Below, piece after piece: positions 5,611 through 16,730 of a stretch of DNA of 64,000 nt (positions within the stretch are counted from its first letter, which is position 1; every line of letters begins with the position of its first letter). The stretch lies in the sequence record OP557970.1; one strand, written 5' to 3'. The translations under genes were made by a program, and so were the position numbers. This DNA comes from Escherichia phage ph0021. The notes beneath the pieces are model-generated. The model worked only from the letters and a program-made list of their open reading frames with translations, made no database searches and had not been told where the DNA came from.

Positions 5611-6192
5611 CTAACCGAGCTTTTTAGTTAATTCATTCCAATGTTTTCTACACAAAGAAACATAAATTTCATCACCAATACAGATTTGATTACCTTCTTT
5701 AACTGGTGTTCCATCTTCCGTTAATCGAGCTGTCATAATCGCTTTTTTACCACAATGACAAACTGCTTTTAGTTCAATAAGTTTATCTGCAATCGCCAAA
5801 AGTTCTTTAGAACCTTCAAATAATTTTCCAGCGAAATCAGTCCTTAGCCCATAAGCCATAACAGGAACATTATATGTATCAACAATTCGGCTTAATTGAT
5901 ACACTTGTTCAGTTTTTAAAAACTGAGCTTCATCTACAAATACGCAATGAATATCTTTTTGTGCTTCAGCCCATTTATAGAACTCAAAAATATCCATATC
6001 ATCCGTAATAATATTCGCTTCCTGTTTAATTCCAATGCGAGAAACGACTTCACAGACAGAATCGCGAGTATCAATAGCAGGCTTAAGAACTAATACACTC
6101 ATTCCACGTTCTTTATAATTATGTGCAGCAGTCAAAAGAGAAGCAGATTTTCCAGCATTCATTGCTGCGTAAGTAAAAATTAAACTCGCCAT
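5611..6192 (-). CDS. tk: Thymidine kinase
   Basis: 193 aa; P-loop NAGKSASLL, VDEAQF, C-terminal CxCG...C zinc motif; same length as T4 Tk. Confidence 0.95.
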   Translation of the reverse strand: MASLIFTYAAMNAGKSASLLTAAHNYKERGMSVLVLKPAIDTRDSVCEVVSRIGIKQEANIITDDMDIFEFYKWAEAQKDIHCVFVDEAQFLKTEQVYQLSRIVDTYNVPVMAYGLRTDFAGKLFEGSKELLAIADKLIELKAVCHCGKKAIMTARLTEDGTPVKEGNQICIGDEIYVSLCRKHWNELTKKLG

Positions 6193-10993: not shown

Positions 10994-11467
10994 TTATTTG
11001 AACGATTTAACGTACTGAATAGAACCTTTACTATTTACAAAGGCAATTTTACCATTTTTATTATACATGGTAGCAGTACGCTGATAGCCATAAGTTTGCT
11101 TACCAGATTGATAACCAACTAATGCAAAATTATCTTCACCCATTTTATTCTGTTTAGCGCGAATACGTTCATGGCCATGTGCCATAAGAACCTTAGCATC
11201 ACCAGTTGCAATGGATCGACGAGTTTTTTCATCTTCAACTGTATTAACAAAATCGTCAAATGAATCAAATTTAGCATGAGATTTATTATACAGTTTTCCA
11301 TCTACTGCATAATTATATCCTTGTACATCCATCTCAACTTCTGTACCATCATCCAATACAGCAGTGATTTTCTGACCTTTTTTAAATTTCAAAAGATCAG
11401 TAAAAGATTCAGCAATAATTTGAGAATTAATAGCTGCTTCAGTGATAAATTCTTGATATGTTTTCAT
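10994..11467 (-). CDS. Internal protein, IPIII-like, with capsid-targeting leader
   Basis: 157 aa; N-terminal MKTYQEFITE with LxE cleavage motif for the gp21 protease; lies just downstream of e as ipIII does in T4. Confidence 0.6.
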   Translation of the reverse strand: MKTYQEFITEAAINSQIIAESFTDLLKFKKGQKITAVLDDGTEVEMDVQGYNYAVDGKLYNKSHAKFDSFDDFVNTVEDEKTRRSIATGDAKVLMAHGHERIRAKQNKMGEDNFALVGYQSGKQTYGYQRTATMYNKNGKIAFVNSKGSIQYVKSFK

Positions 11468-11555: not shown

Positions 11556-12086
<531 letters not shown>

Positions 12087-12542
12087 TTAAAAGAGGCTGT
12101 TCATTATTCGGTAAAGTGAAGGACCCATCACATATTGCCACTGAGTACGAGGAATAAGAGCAAAAGCATCCATCTCTGGAATCATAACGCCATCTTTATT
12201 TTCAAAATAAGACTCGCAATGGCAATTTCTAAACATCTCATGCTCTACTGGAATCGTATAATAAAATAACTGTAAGTCTTTATTACTAGAATATTTAAAT
12301 ACACCTAGGTCTTCTAGAAGGTCTGGATTATAATTGCTAAAACCAGTCTCTTCTAAGCATTCTCTTTTTGCAGCTTCCAGTGCATTCAAATCAGAACTTT
12401 CTACACGCCCCTTTGGAATATCCCAGCGATGTGCCATCATTCCAGGCTTACGAGAACCAGTAACCCGACCCATAAATAAATCTTTATCTTCTGTCATAAA
12501 GATAATACCAGCTGATAGTGTTTTCATTTTAATTTCCTGCAT
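12087..12542 (-). CDS. nudE: Nudix hydrolase NudE (e.1)
   Basis: 151 aa; Nudix box GRVESSDLNALEAAKRECLEETG; position after e as in T4. Confidence 0.85.
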   Translation of the reverse strand: MQEIKMKTLSAGIIFMTEDKDLFMGRVTGSRKPGMMAHRWDIPKGRVESSDLNALEAAKRECLEETGFSNYNPDLLEDLGVFKYSSNKDLQLFYYTIPVEHEMFRNCHCESYFENKDGVMIPEMDAFALIPRTQWQYVMGPSLYRIMNSLF

Positions 12543-13012
12543 TCAGTGATAAAGTTATTTAAATTTTGAGTATATTTCTTTTCATCAAAAATCTTTTGTT
12601 GTCTGCGTAGCCGCCATGGCATTTCAATGAACGTGCACCATATCCCAGATAATATTGCTGCTGTCAAAATATTAACAAGTATGGTTAAAAGAATCCAATC
12701 TTCTATTCTGTCCATTGGATTTTTTATGAAAAAGTAAAATACGAATGATGTCACAGGAAGACTAATAATATACCACAGAATCATAATCTTATCTGTGAAC
12801 CAATCAGCGTTCGTTAACTTAGCGCGACCATTATAAATACACACGAATTTATCATCTGTTGCAGTAGATGACTTAACTGGTTGATATCCCATTCTAAACT
12901 CCCTAATCAACAAATTTTTCATATCTTCTGAACAGCCATTCCAGTCAACTCTATCAACTGGAATGCCATCATCCCCATCATCTAAATCATACCAGCGAGT
13001 TTTTAAAATCAT
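12524..13012 (-). CDS. Small membrane protein, member of a tandem paralog trio
   Basis: 162 aa; two hydrophobic segments; C-terminal FITECRKLK shared with the next two ORFs. Confidence 0.5.
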   Translation of the reverse strand: MILKTRWYDLDDGDDGIPVDRVDWNGCSEDMKNLLIREFRMGYQPVKSSTATDDKFVCIYNGRAKLTNADWFTDKIMILWYIISLPVTSFVFYFFIKNPMDRIEDWILLTILVNILTAAILSGIWCTFIEMPWRLRRQQKIFDEKKYTQNLNNFITECRKLK

Positions 13013-13371
13013 TTAATTTTCCTGCAATCGCTCACAAACTCTTTCATTGATTCATTTTCAATATAAGACATGTAGTTATTATATTCTTTTAACTGTATTT
13101 TGTAATCCTTTTTTCTTTGCCAATTTATTTTAAAATTATCATAATGAAAATATAACATGGTACCAAAGAATGAAAATAATGAAATAATTTTAGTATAGTG
13201 AAGTTCACTCCAAACTTCTGTTATATTTACTGTGCCGTCGATGTTTAAAATAAGACAGTCAATTAACAATCCAAAAAGACTACCCGCAAGAGCTGCAGCC
13301 AACGCCACAGCAAAAATTAAAAATGACTCAGGAAGCGAATATTTGACTTTATTTAGTTTTGGCTTTTGCAT
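13009..13371 (-). CDS. Small membrane protein, member of a tandem paralog trio
   Basis: 120 aa; hydrophobic segments; C-terminal FVSDCRKIK. Confidence 0.5.
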   Translation of the reverse strand: MQKPKLNKVKYSLPESFLIFAVALAAALAGSLFGLLIDCLILNIDGTVNITEVWSELHYTKIISLFSFFGTMLYFHYDNFKINWQRKKDYKIQLKEYNNYMSYIENESMKEFVSDCRKIK

Positions 13372-13766
13372 CGTGATTCCTTAACAAATTTCATAATTTC
13401 ATCAAATTCATATGCAGCAAGTTTAAGCTGGTGTTCCTTTTTAATCTTTTTACACTGCGCTTTCCAATCACGTACGCGTTTACGATAATGTCTTCCTTGA
13501 TACCAGTATCCTACCCAATTTACCGGTACTAATAAAAGTGGAACTACCAATGGAAGAATTAGCATTAACACAAGTATTTCGCCAGAATCAATATCAGTCA
13601 TAACATCTAAAACACCTCCAATAATCAATAGAATTACAAATGATATGAGTATAACAGGACCTATTAACGCATCAGTAGAAATTATCTGACGCTTTGATTC
13701 ATACTTCAACGGTTTACTTGGAAGGTATAGTGATGGTTTTGACATATTCTCTACATTCCTTAACAA
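13353..13766 (-). CDS. Small membrane protein, member of a tandem paralog trio
   Basis: 137 aa; hydrophobic segments; C-terminal FVKESRCKSQN. Confidence 0.5.
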   Translation of the reverse strand: MLRNVENMSKPSLYLPSKPLKYESKRQIISTDALIGPVILISFVILLIIGGVLDVMTDIDSGEILVLMLILPLVVPLLLVPVNWVGYWYQGRHYRKRVRDWKAQCKKIKKEHQLKLAAYEFDEIMKFVKESRCKSQN

Positions 13767-14328
13767 ATTTTTCTAATAATAAATCGCTTTCAAAATTTGG
13801 ATTTTCTACGAATTTATCAAAAAGATCATCAACAATAGTCAAGATATTCTTTTTACTAAGAATACGCTTATTTTCATATTTTGTTTCAGAGTCAACTATA
13901 AGAGTAAAGAAATATTTCTTTCCCTGAAATTTTACCGTAGTATCAATATAAAATAAATTTGATTTTTGTAAATTACGTTTAAACCATGCATCACTTAAAC
14001 TATAAACGCCAAGATAATCATAATCGTCGTTTAAATAACAAACCGTCCATTCAGGAGAAATGAAATCAGTAAATTCAACATCAAAATCACACGTCAATGA
14101 ATGAATTGATTCAATACTGTTAATGAGTATTCCAGGACGTATTAAAGACTTTTTACCTCTAGAAAATCTTCCGGAAAGGCTTTCATCGGTTTCATATGAA
14201 GACCCCCAATAGTAATTACGTCCTTCTGCCATGCGTTTAAGAGCATTTAGTAATTGGTCTGGAACATCAACCTGTCTTTGGAACTCTTCAAACATTGAAT
14301 TGAAATCACTTTGCATTTTCATTTTCAT
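13714..14328 (-). CDS. Hypothetical protein (204 aa)
   Basis: ORF with GGAG 9 nt upstream of the ATG at 14328. Confidence 0.5.
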   Translation of the reverse strand: MKMKMQSDFNSMFEEFQRQVDVPDQLLNALKRMAEGRNYYWGSSYETDESLSGRFSRGKKSLIRPGILINSIESIHSLTCDFDVEFTDFISPEWTVCYLNDDYDYLGVYSLSDAWFKRNLQKSNLFYIDTTVKFQGKKYFFTLIVDSETKYENKRILSKKNILTIVDDLFDKFVENPNFESDLLLEKFVKECREYVKTITIPSK

Positions 14329-14349
14329 TCCTATTTACTCCAAGTATAA

Positions 14350-14363
14350 GGGGCCGAAGCCCC
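14350..14363 (-). other. UUCG-tetraloop hairpin (RNA stability element or weak terminator)
   Basis: Minus strand GGGGC-UUCG-GCCCC, 6 nt after the stop of ORF 14370..14963; no U-run follows. Confidence 0.3.
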
Positions 14364-14369
14364 TTATCA

Positions 14370-14963
14370 TTATTTCAGAGAATTAATATATTCCTGAACA
14401 TCGGCAGAGGTAGTTTCAACCCCAGAAATATTACCGTTAAAGGTTTCAACTCGAGCAAGGGTATCTTCAATATCAACCTTAGTCAGTGCTGCAATTTCAA
14501 CTACATCATCGGCAGTACTAATTCCAAGGGCATTTGCTGCACGAGTTTCACGGATATATTCCAATTTAACAGCAAGTTCTTGACGAGCATCATCTAACTC
14601 AACTACTTTCTTGGCGATTTCAATTCGCATTTCAGCATAACCGTCAGCCTTAGTAGTCAACTGCTCAGCTGTTCGACGATATAGTAAACCGAGTTTAGCA
14701 TGCATTGTTACATCTTGGCCTTCGGAAAGAAGTTTACGAATTTCACGCTCTTTTGATTCAGCCTGTCGATTCTTTTCGACAATAAGTTCACGAATACGTT
14801 TTTCTTCATTAATAGATTTAACAGAAGCAGTTTTTAGGTCTTTAATTTTATCAAGTAGTTTTGCTGCTGCAGCAGTATACTGTTCTTCGACAGATAGATT
14901 TTTAGCCATAGCAGAGCCAAGTTTAGTGCGAATAAACTCAACAATTTTCTTCAGTGTGTTCAT
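14370..14963 (-). CDS. Coiled-coil protein (197 aa), possibly PspA/IM30-like
   Basis: ORF with heptad-rich Glu/Lys/Arg/Leu composition throughout; fold assignment is a guess. Confidence 0.45.
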
Positions 14964-15037
14964 AGTATTTCCTTAGGTTGATTAAGATTTAAAATCCGTA
15001 AAAGTAGTATTATACTCTATCATCAAGTTACAGGCTC

Positions 15038-15067
15038 ATAATATCTCAATCATGAGCCTATGTAAAC
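15038..15067 (-). promoter_or_regulatory. Early promoter (GTTTAC, 18 nt, TATTAT) with inverted repeat around the -10
   Basis: -35 at 15062-15067 abuts the stop of ORF 15068; 8-bp inverted repeat AGGCTCAT/ATGAGCCT at 15033-15040 and 15053-15060. Confidence 0.45.
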
Positions 15068-15331
15068 TTATTTCATATTATTGAAATATTCTTCTGCGAT
15101 TTCGTCGTTATCGTGGTAAACTTTAGAAGACAGTTTAACATAACCTTCTGCTGTGAACATGTTAATCACAACCTTTACAGTATACCACTGACCGTCTTCA
15201 TTACCCATTACTGCGTAAGTTTCAAACATCGGATGATCAGGACCGATAACTTTAATATCATTCACTGTACGACCGAAATCTTCTGAAACGCATTTCATAA
15301 AGAAGTTGAACAGTTCGCCGTAATTATCCAT
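15068..15331 (-). CDS. Hypothetical protein (87 aa)
   Basis: ORF 15068..15343 trimmed to ATG at 15331 after GGAG; same promoter and leader module as the gene at 969. Confidence 0.5.
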   Translation of the reverse strand: MDNYGELFNFFMKCVSEDFGRTVNDIKVIGPDHPMFETYAVMGNEDGQWYTVKVVINMFTAEGYVKLSSKVYHDNDEIAEEYFNNMK

Positions 15332-15374
15332 TTCATTCTCCAAGCTGTTTTCTGTATCAGTAGTTGATAGTTGT

Positions 15375-15420
15375 ATAGTACCATGGAAGAACAGAGATGT
15401 AAACAGTTTTGTGAAAAAAT
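15375..15420 (-). promoter_or_regulatory. T4-type early promoter (GTTTAC, 18 nt, TACTAT)
   Basis: -35 at 15399-15404 and -10 at 15375-15380 on minus strand, with A/T tract upstream. Confidence 0.5.
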
Positions 15421-15570: not shown

Positions 15571-16137
15571 TTATTTGCTTAGTTTAGTTATTATAGCTTC
15601 TGCGGCAGCTTTTAGCTTAGATGCGGTGTTAATACGATTTTTAATTTCAGTATACGCATCGCCAAGAACATCAAGGCTATCGGAATAAACACTTACACTA
15701 TTGCGTTCGCTATTTGAAATAGAACCTTTAGTTTTGCGATCAAAATCGGTGTACACGTCTTGAAGATCACGGGCTGCCTTCTTTGCATCATCCAATGCAT
15801 CAAGAGCTTTATTCAAAGCATTAACATATTTTTTAGTGTCGAACATATTCTTAGAAATTTTGACAGGTGCACGTTCAGGAGTAGCTAAGGCAGATTTAGG
15901 AAGAACCTGTTTGCCAGATGCCAGTTTCTTAGAAATTTTGAAAAACGCTTTATTGAAATTATTTTCTTGACTCATCGTAAAAGAACTATTATCAATGTTA
16001 TACATTTCAATAGCTTTAGCTTTCCACTTAAGAAAATCGCCACGGTCTTTTGGGTCCAAGTGGAAGAATACTTTAGTAAGATCTGCTTCAGATGGTAATT
16101 TTGCTGCTTCGGTTAAAAATTCGGCGTAGGTTTTCAT
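15571..16137 (-). CDS. Internal-protein-like protein with capsid-targeting leader
   Basis: 188 aa; N-terminal MKTYAEFLTEA (LxE motif) as in T4 internal proteins. Confidence 0.55.
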   Translation of the reverse strand: MKTYAEFLTEAAKLPSEADLTKVFFHLDPKDRGDFLKWKAKAIEMYNIDNSSFTMSQENNFNKAFFKISKKLASGKQVLPKSALATPERAPVKISKNMFDTKKYVNALNKALDALDDAKKAARDLQDVYTDFDRKTKGSISNSERNSVSVYSDSLDVLGDAYTEIKNRINTASKLKAAAEAIITKLSK

Positions 16138-16255: not shown

Positions 16256-16525
16256 TTATTTGATTTGTTTAGCAGACCAAATGCGGTCTTTGATGATTTT
16301 TTGGAGGTCTTCAACATACTCTAGGTCATGAGCATGTGGATTATCTTTGAAACTATGAGCTCGCGCAAGTTTCTGGCCTTCGGTTTTGATTACTAAAAGC
16401 TCTTTAAGGATAGCTTCATATTTAGCGATAATTCCTTTAACGATATTTTTTTTCTTGTGCAGCTTTAGGATCTGCTTTAGGAGCAGGTTTACCCGAAGCC
16501 TTTGCAAAAGCAGCGCCAGTAGCAA
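16256..16525 (-). CDS. Downstream reading frame of a split internal-protein-like gene
   Basis: ORF in the +1 frame relative to 16437..16730; continuous with it if the A8 run at 16446-16453 is read as A7. Confidence 0.35.
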   Translation of the reverse strand: MLLALLLQRLRVNLLLKQILKLHKKKNIVKGIIAKYEAILKELLVIKTEGQKLARAHSFKDNPHAHDLEYVEDLQKIIKDRIWSAKQIK

Positions 16526-16730
16526 CTAAACTTTTCCAGGCCATACTAACTGCATTTCCCGTAAATCCTTCTGCTTTCATGTCGCGAGCAAACTGGAATC
16601 GTGATTCGTCAGAAGCATCTTTATAGGAATATTTACCCGCTGCAATGGCTGCTTTTGCGACAGCTTGAATTTCGGTGCTAGATGCTTCATTTAACACCGC
16701 TTCATTTAAAAATTGAGCATATGATTTCAT
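16437..16730 (-). CDS. Internal-protein-like protein with capsid-targeting leader (possibly truncated by frameshift)
   Basis: 97 aa; N-terminal MKSYAQFLNEA; stops 3 codons after an A8 homopolymer; late promoter 30 nt upstream. Confidence 0.5.
   Translation of the reverse strand: MKSYAQFLNEAVLNEASSTEIQAVAKAAIAAGKYSYKDASDESRFQFARDMKAEGFTGNAVSMAWKSLVATGAAFAKASGKPAPKADPKAAQEKKYR

Follow-up and report, generated by a model that had tools for sequence, protein, structure and literature searches.

A PspA/Vipp1-related protein and its tailed neighbours in the e.6-to-e.2 block of T4-type phages

In bacteria, PspA is recruited by PspB and PspC, and LiaH is recruited by LiaI. The Psp and Lia systems share an architecture in which a PspA-type gene lies beside genes for small membrane proteins (PMC11237479). 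A comparable layout is found in Escherichia phage ph0021 (sequence record OP557970.1), of which a stretch of 64,000 nucleotides, referred to here as the window, was analysed. Five open reading frames (ORFs) on its minus strand are orthologues of the genes e.2, e.3, e.4, e.5 and e.6 of phage T4 (NC_000866, T4p125-T4p129). They encode a relative of PspA and Vipp1 (e.6), a soluble protein (e.5) and three small membrane proteins (e.4, e.3 and e.2), the last four of which carry a common C-terminal tail. The point of interest is the complete module from e.6 to e.2, more than the trio of membrane proteins singled out in an earlier note on this DNA. The genes are as follows:

e.2 orthologue: 12524-13012, minus strand; 162 residues, intact, with an acidic N-terminal domain of ~75 residues, two transmembrane (TM) helices and the tail FITECR.
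e.3 orthologue: 13009-13371, minus strand; 120 residues, with one strong and one weaker TM segment, a cytoplasmic C-terminal helix and the tail FVSDCR.
e.4 orthologue: 13353-13745, minus strand; 130 residues from the ATG, N-terminus inside, with two TM helices, a basic cytoplasmic C-terminal helix and the tail FVKESR.
e.5 orthologue: 13714-14328, minus strand; 204 residues, soluble, with FVKECR at residues 188-193, inside the C-terminal helix 183-198 predicted by its structure model.
e.6 orthologue: 14370-14963, minus strand; 197 residues, a divergent homologue of PspA/Vipp1 (IM30, ESCRT-III superfamily).

These same-strand ORFs are as first described, and stop and start codons of neighbouring ORFs overlap. 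One boundary can be read in two ways: as an ORF of 137 residues (13353-13766) the third would start with TTG, and the ATG at 13745 gives the 130-residue form, in agreement with the T4 annotation and with the PHROG alignment, which starts at residue 8. The window comes from a phage of the T4 type. Over bases 12000-15400 it matches GenBank OR584013 ('Pseudomonas phage PsgM02F') at 100% identity, and many Tequatrovirus genomes of Escherichia and Shigella at 96-97%. The host on record for OR584013 is Pseudomonas coronafaciens, a label best treated cautiously in view of the 96-97% match to E. coli and Shigella Tequatroviruses. The block had been placed where T4 has e.2-e.8; the position holds, and by sequence the genes are e.2-e.6 specifically. 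Their order, strand and overlaps are those of T4, and four of the five share ~92-97% nucleotide identity with it. The fifth, e.2, aligns only with gaps because T4 e.2 (NC_000866 67472-67960; L001) is split into an annotated ORF of 102 residues and a C-terminal ORF of 36 residues, whereas in the window it is intact; the 36-residue fragment retains the end NNFITECRKLK.

The C-terminal tail and its linkage to e.6

The tail follows the consensus L-x-x-F-[IV]-x-[ED]-C-R, which would align L, F, I and C along the same face of a short amphipathic helix. In the window it occupies these positions:

e.5 tail motif F188-R193: 13750-13767, minus strand; contains part of the 16-mer AAATTTGTTAAGGAAT.
e.4 tail motif F120-R125: 13371-13388, minus strand; shares nucleotides with the start codon of e.3 and its Shine-Dalgarno sequence.
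e.3 tail motif F112-R117: 13021-13038, minus strand; the codons that follow (CRKIK and stop) hold the Shine-Dalgarno sequence of e.2 and the ATGA start/stop overlap.
e.2 tail motif F154-R159: 12536-12553, minus strand; overlaps the start region of nudE.

The earlier note had reported the motif at the ends of the three membrane proteins. It is present on all three, but the list was incomplete, as the 204-residue e.5 protein carries it too (EKFVKECREY). Its occurrence is far from chance: the pattern [FWY][IV]xx[CS][RK] is found eight times in the 198 ORFs of the window that start with ATG and encode at least 40 residues, five times in a C-terminal tail, and four of these five ORFs are the consecutive e.2, e.3, e.4 and e.5. 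The fifth is thymidine kinase (YVSLCRK; 5611-6192), which was judged a chance match. In the ~123 kb of T4 that were scanned, the motif occurs in e.2-e.5 and tk only. A protein was assigned to the tail family when the motif lay in its last 40 residues and was conserved as a peptide and its gene adjoined an orthologue of e.6, as is the case for all of e.2-e.5. In total, 75 distinct tailed ORFs were collected from 26 loci. A hidden Markov model (HMM) of the Straboviridae tail, run against 1547 ORFs, places the members at expectation values (E) of at most 0.011 and the next ORF at E 0.14, the members having been its seeds.

The linkage to e.6 was followed through 24 related Straboviridae loci (L003-L026) from IMG/VR and GenBank, which span nine genera (Tequatrovirus, Mosigvirus, Dhakavirus, Jiaodavirus, Karamvirus, Biquartavirus, Ishigurovirus, Pseudotevenvirus and Bragavirus). 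The ORF directly after e.6 is tailed in 24 of 24. These first tailed proteins have 154-315 residues, besides one frameshifted fragment of 92 residues, and fall into several clusters unrelated to each other by BLAST. Farther downstream lie tailed proteins with two TM segments, in variable number; one Karamvirus has four of them consecutively. In one Bragavirus of Proteus, Y replaces F in six of six tails.

The same layout occurs in a second family, since the clade of the e.6 relative P0124 is Ackermannviridae. In Agtrevirus pSal-SNUABM-02, a Salmonella phage (L039 4001-5728), the PspA-like gene is followed by a gene for a soluble protein of 183 residues (...IETIVARARGQ...) and then by genes for single-TM proteins of 59, 55 and 61 residues that end in IVENARGRRR, IVNKARGRRK and IVSQARSRRQ. 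Erwinia phage Bue1 (L041 4001-6217) is arranged similarly. In Ackermannviridae the module adjoins genes for DNA ligase and helicase, the single-TM proteins have 55-72 residues, and the tail reads I-V-x-x-A-R(G)RR. The order of PspA-like gene, soluble tailed protein and small tailed membrane proteins is thus kept in two phage families, and the tail varies by lineage.

Because e.6 alone always accompanies the tailed genes, it is the simplest candidate for the partner of the tail. The tail might instead dock on another protein, such as host PspA or PspF, FtsH, a chaperone or another conserved phage protein, with e.6 merely syntenic. A tail that is conserved as a peptide and covaries with lineage would suit any one partner, among them a host protein that is not the same in Proteus, enterobacterial and other hosts, and the most distant relatives of e.6 occur without tailed neighbours. 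However, e.6 is the sole gene found with tailed genes in every locus of Straboviridae and Ackermannviridae, and the tail variant tracks the phage family and not the host: Ackermannviridae of Salmonella and Erwinia have I-V-x-x-A-R, whereas enterobacterial Straboviridae have F-I-x-x-C-R. A partner other than e.6 is accordingly regarded as unlikely, though it deserves to be kept in mind.

A separate series of tandem ORFs was seen in JS10 (L018 6522-7766), JK42 (L026 6945-7739) and a Karamvirus (L022 6299-6825). These encode soluble proteins of 65-101 residues, all with the ending W[VF]SSSxxC or WY[PT]SSC, and are located between nudE and the e.3-like gene. The window shows no such series.

The membrane proteins e.2, e.3 and e.4

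The two hydrophobic segments that had been described in each member of the trio are strong in e.2 (Kyte-Doolittle peaks at 78-96 and 106-124) and in e.4 (31-49 and 57-75), and in e.3 there is one strong segment (19-37) and one weaker (~57-75). With basic flanks on the N- and C-terminal sides and acidic loops, all three proteins should have both ends in the cytoplasm by the positive-inside rule. The proteins also change quickly, as had been proposed: in 9 of 10 comparisons of e.2, e.3 and e.4, codon differences are more often non-synonymous than synonymous, with a ratio of synonymous to non-synonymous of ~1:2, whereas e.6 differs from its T4 counterpart by 19 synonymous codons and 1 non-synonymous. 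The core of the block, e.6, is thus constrained and its membrane partners are fast-evolving.

Whether the trio arose by tandem duplication is a different matter. According to the earlier note, e.2, e.3 and e.4 are tandem paralogues; on such a view they would be independent, diversifying membrane proteins of superinfection exclusion or defence evasion, with e.5 and e.6 as unrelated neighbours. Their common topology, small size, tandem overlap and tail speak for this, as do their fast evolution and the differing number of tailed membrane genes between genera. Further hints come from the junctions. The N-termini of e.3 and e.4 are alike (MQKPKL and MSKPSL), and one exact 16-mer, AAATTTGTTAAGGAAT, is common to the e.5/e.4 and e.4/e.3 junctions, at 13755-13770 in the e.5 tail and at 13376-13391 in the e.4 tail. 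A 21-nucleotide string, GAWTGCAGGAAAWTWAAATGA, occurs at 12524-12544 (e.2) and 13009-13029 (e.3) with 18 of 21 nucleotides matching, and includes the Shine-Dalgarno sequence of the next gene and the ATGA overlap. Like this string, the 16-mer takes in the Shine-Dalgarno sequence or the start of the gene that follows. The N-terminal likeness and the two DNA-level tail pairs are weak hints of duplication at the junctions, and recombination between the paired strings might add members to the array or remove them.

The proteins themselves do not bear out a common origin. In pairwise BLASTP of e.2, e.3 and e.4, only 15-37 C-terminal residues align (E 0.008-0.1). With hhalign at full length, e.2 matches e.3 with 81% probability over 17 columns, and it matches the e.5 type of Dhakavirus with 70% probability over 12 columns; once the tails are trimmed, every pair falls below 3%. 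Clustering of the 75 tailed ORFs by tail-trimmed BLASTP leaves the e.2, e.3, e.4 and e.5 clusters separate, and tail-trimmed iterative HMM searches of 931 ORFs yield four disjoint families with no common members. A database-wide search with e.3 returned relatives that are all at least 69% identical to it and no bridge to e.2 or e.4. The earlier note had named two outcomes that would refute it: the TM helices are indeed predicted, but no similarity extends past the C-terminal residues, and by that criterion the claim of paralogy fails on sequence. Similarity is confined to ~15 C-terminal residues and the tail is also on the soluble e.5, so shared ancestry of whole genes cannot be shown; a recent tandem duplication of e.2-e.4 is not demonstrated, and what the genes have in common is the tail module. 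Moreover, e.2, e.3 and e.4 form old, separate orthologous groups, each maintained over several genera, the tail is also borne by soluble e.5-like proteins that look unrelated, it accompanies e.6 in every locus, and no known exclusion or defence family is matched; the five proteins of the block gave zero matches to the PADLOC defence and exclusion profiles. A set of independent paralogues is considered unlikely.

The e.6 family, the tail peptide and the surrounding sequence

The e.6 protein of the window is 99.5% identical to T4 e.6, and the gene was located by tblastn in 1,106 records of phages. When 1.84 billion representative proteins were searched exhaustively with a profile, the family came out as a compact set of 45 clusters, with full-length members of ~195-209 residues. 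A possible resemblance to PspA had been noted from the heptad-rich sequence, and it is upheld here by significant profile matches and by PspA_IM30 hits among family members. When a profile built from the 41-sequence alignment of the e.6 family (A4) was run with hmmsearch against 177,635 PDB sequences, Vipp1 ranked first (E 7.3e-5; residues 1-146 to 1-147), and 8 of the 9 top matches were Vipp1 or PspA, aligned from residue 1 to ~146. In hhalign, the family matches E. coli PspA and Synechocystis Vipp1, both checked against PDB entries, with 88% probability (E 2.8e-6; score 44.4 over 137 columns, from residue 1). Control scores were 18.4 for the reversed, 12.1 ± 2.0 for the column-shuffled and 18.3 ± 3.9 (maximum 35.3) for the block-shuffled alignment. 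P0124 and P0125, two proteins of the family, exceed the Pfam PF04012 (PspA_IM30) cut-off of 33.9 bits with scores of 35.1 and 39.0, and their matches to the e.6 profile have E values of 1e-21 and 3e-20; P0124 also aligns to T4 e.6 in tblastn at E 5e-8 over 97% of its length.

The predicted helices agree with those of the family. In the AlphaFold2 (AF2) model, which has a mean predicted local distance difference test score (pLDDT) of 74.7, and 81-94 in the hairpin, helices span residues 3-22, 25-80 and 86-145. This corresponds to an N-terminal amphipathic helix (alpha-0) followed by a hairpin of alpha1 and alpha2+3. The hydrophobic moment of helix 0 is 0.45, compared with 0.42 in PspA and 0.57 in Vipp1. 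A Foldseek search of the PDB with the model returns Vipp1 in all of the top 8 places (best E 3.7e-4), then archaeal CdvB and PspA.

Could e.6 be a generic coiled-coil or BAR-like helical protein that resembles PspA in composition alone? The insignificant matches of the single window protein and of a narrow profile would suit such a protein. However, the Vipp1/PspA match runs end-to-end from residue 1 and ranks top among all PDB sequences, the shuffled and reversed controls score far lower, and the two family members above the curated PF04012 threshold would be hard to account for. A resemblance of composition is considered very improbable, and e.6 is taken as a member of the PspA/Vipp1 (IM30) family, and hence of the ESCRT-III superfamily, on the strength of the sequence evidence, which decides the question.

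The peptide nature of the tail can be read from its codons. In a set of 50 different DNA versions, the Cys codon is TGT (24) or TGC (25) and the Arg codon AGA (8), AGG (12), CGA (5), CGT (14), CGC (5) or CGG (1), and between 1 and 25 codons separate the motif from the stop. Since all synonymous Cys and Arg codons are used and the distance to the stop varies, the tail is conserved at the level of the peptide. A purely nucleotide-level feature devoid of protein meaning (a ribosome-binding site, start/stop coupling or a recombination repeat) is the least probable alternative: the start codon of the following gene and its Shine-Dalgarno sequence do lie within the window tails, which also form two DNA-level pairs, but the versions draw on both Arg codon families and keep no fixed register to the next start, and the place of the Shine-Dalgarno sequence within the motif is not the same in e.2/e.3 as in e.4/e.5. 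An origin of the motif in translational coupling or in the ribosome-binding site is largely refuted by the codon usage and the variable distance to the stop.

The databases say little of the individual genes. Each of e.2-e.6 has one separate PHROG of unknown function, the fragments of e.2 forming two families (phrog_35263 and phrog_35580), and as single proteins e.2-e.6 gave no significant match in Pfam, NCBIfam, PADLOC or the PDB sequences. Homologues of e.5 carry PF26876 in a newer Pfam release; the structure model of e.5 is of low confidence and has no fold match. Public records call e.6 a 'host specificity protein' and use 'sulfurtransferase' or 'DNA primase' for e.3 or e.4, names for which no support was found.

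Two features of the surrounding sequence are worth recording. The first is a hairpin:

Hairpin: 14346-14367, minus strand; G+C-rich (AAGGGGCTTCGGCCCCTT), with a CTTCGG loop region, between the e.6 stop and the ribosome-binding site of e.5.

On the coding strand the hairpin is without a following T-run, and the terminator scan lists it on the opposite strand only. It may be an RNA stabiliser or attenuator that separates expression of e.6 from that of the downstream genes. A promoter scan found no excess over the shuffled expectation, so no claim is made about the timing of expression. The second feature concerns the neighbouring genes. The ORFs at 10994-11467, 15571-16137 and 16437-16730, all on the minus strand, start with MKTYQEFITEAA, MKTYAEFLTEAAK and MKSYAQFLNEAV respectively, which we take to be the capsid-targeting leader typical of T4 internal proteins (Ip). 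With the leader in these three ORFs, there are therefore two extra Ip-like genes upstream of e.6, at the position of e.7, e.8 and segB in T4.

A possible membrane module and its known counterparts

The reading we prefer, though it falls a little short of an even chance, is that the block from e.6 to e.2 is one conserved phage module whose tails dock the PspA-like e.6 at the inner membrane. The common tail would act as a docking helix for one partner, most simply e.6. Through it, e.4, e.3 and e.2 could anchor or nucleate a PspA-like polymer at the cytoplasmic side of the inner membrane, much as PspB/PspC and LiaI do for PspA and LiaH, with e.5 as a putative soluble adaptor or regulator. Such a module would probably serve to keep the inner membrane of the infected cell sealed and energised under the stresses of injection, of lysis inhibition and holin accumulation, and of the pore-formers of host abortive infection. 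A further step, more speculative and at present doubtful, would be to credit Straboviridae (T4-type) and Ackermannviridae (ViI-type) with a self-contained 'phage shock' system of their own, in which a membrane-targeted e.6 polymer, with a fast-evolving set of small membrane anchors and a soluble adaptor docking by a lineage-specific tail, counters holin leakage, superinfection damage or pore-formers.

Several observations weigh against the docking module. The Ackermannviridae tails escape the HMM built on those of Straboviridae, and the resemblance between the two therefore comes from pattern and synteny alone. The most distant e.6 relatives examined (L030, L035 and L036) lack tailed neighbours. 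In the window the tails take in the ribosome-binding sites of the genes that follow, and they form two DNA-level pairs, so that part of their local identity is nucleotide-level. Searches with e.2-e.4 for PspB (PF06667), PspC (PF04024) and LiaI-LiaF-TM in Pfam and NCBIfam gave nothing above noise. Neither the window e.6 nor 30 close relatives match PF04012 at E ≤ 0.05-0.1, and a narrow 30-sequence profile reaches only 9% against PspA in hhalign and is insignificant in the PDB search; because the single protein and the narrow profile stay below significance, e.6 is a diverged and not a typical member of its family. Lastly, knock-downs of T4 e.2-e.6 by CRISPR interference through antisense RNA targeting (CRISPRi-ART) are classed 'Not Fit', with prior essentiality 'UNKNOWN' (PMC11879866 supplement), which we take to mean that fitness was not measurably impaired in the laboratory. 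This class tells rather little, because the lysozyme gene e bears the same label in the same table (PMC11879866 supplement). Still, as e.2 is split in T4 and the knock-downs are 'Not Fit', any role of the module would be conditional.

All five T4 genes are hypothetical in the NC_000866 annotation and 'Unknown' in the knock-down table (PMC11879866 supplement), although T4 is the best-studied virulent phage. Literature searches by the gene names e.2-e.6 led to annotation tables only, and a search that was not exhaustive found no link between T4 e.6 and PspA. Phage homologues are not mentioned in a broad phylogenomic survey of Psp systems or in a 2025 review of bacterial and archaeal ESCRT-III. 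A gene of the PspA/ESCRT-III type occurs in over 1,100 sequenced phages of the T4-like and ViI-like groups, which would mean that these phages possess membrane-maintenance machinery of their own. This bears on the old questions of how the envelope stays intact in T-even infection, both through lysis inhibition and in exclusion of the rII/Rex type, and on ways in which phages might blunt the membrane-targeting effectors of abortive infection. The lineage-covarying tail offers a concrete docking-peptide hypothesis that is cheap to test, and possibly a handle on bacterial PspA-like partners.

Within T4 itself, the superinfection-exclusion and membrane-integrity proteins Imm, Sp, rI, rIII and RIIA/B are small, early-expressed and act at the inner membrane or in the periplasm. 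The proteins of the block differ from them in that they have no sequence or family match to any of these, and the tail is absent from the other scanned T4 ORFs. A pspA-like gene has been described in the 'Jug' jumbo gut phages (PMC12880540). Like e.6, it is phage-encoded and PspA-like, but it belongs to another phage group and lies beside terD, with no set of tailed partners described (PMC12880540). With the PspA/Vipp1 family (IM30, PF04012), e.6 shares the amphipathic N-terminal helix and the long hairpin of helices, the boundaries of which agree. By contrast, e.6 has 197 residues instead of about 220-270, its C-terminal third differs and is modelled with low confidence, and its family is phage-encoded and, by context, of Straboviridae and Ackermannviridae. 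In layout the block resembles the Psp and Lia systems, as it also has a PspA-type gene adjoining genes for small membrane proteins with cytoplasmic C-terminal helices. It is distinguished from these systems by having no regulator of the PspF or LiaRS type and partners that are unrelated by sequence to PspB, PspC and LiaI. The partners of the block vary from one to several, and are marked out by a common F-I-x-E-C-R or I-V-x-x-A-R tail that is also present on a soluble protein.

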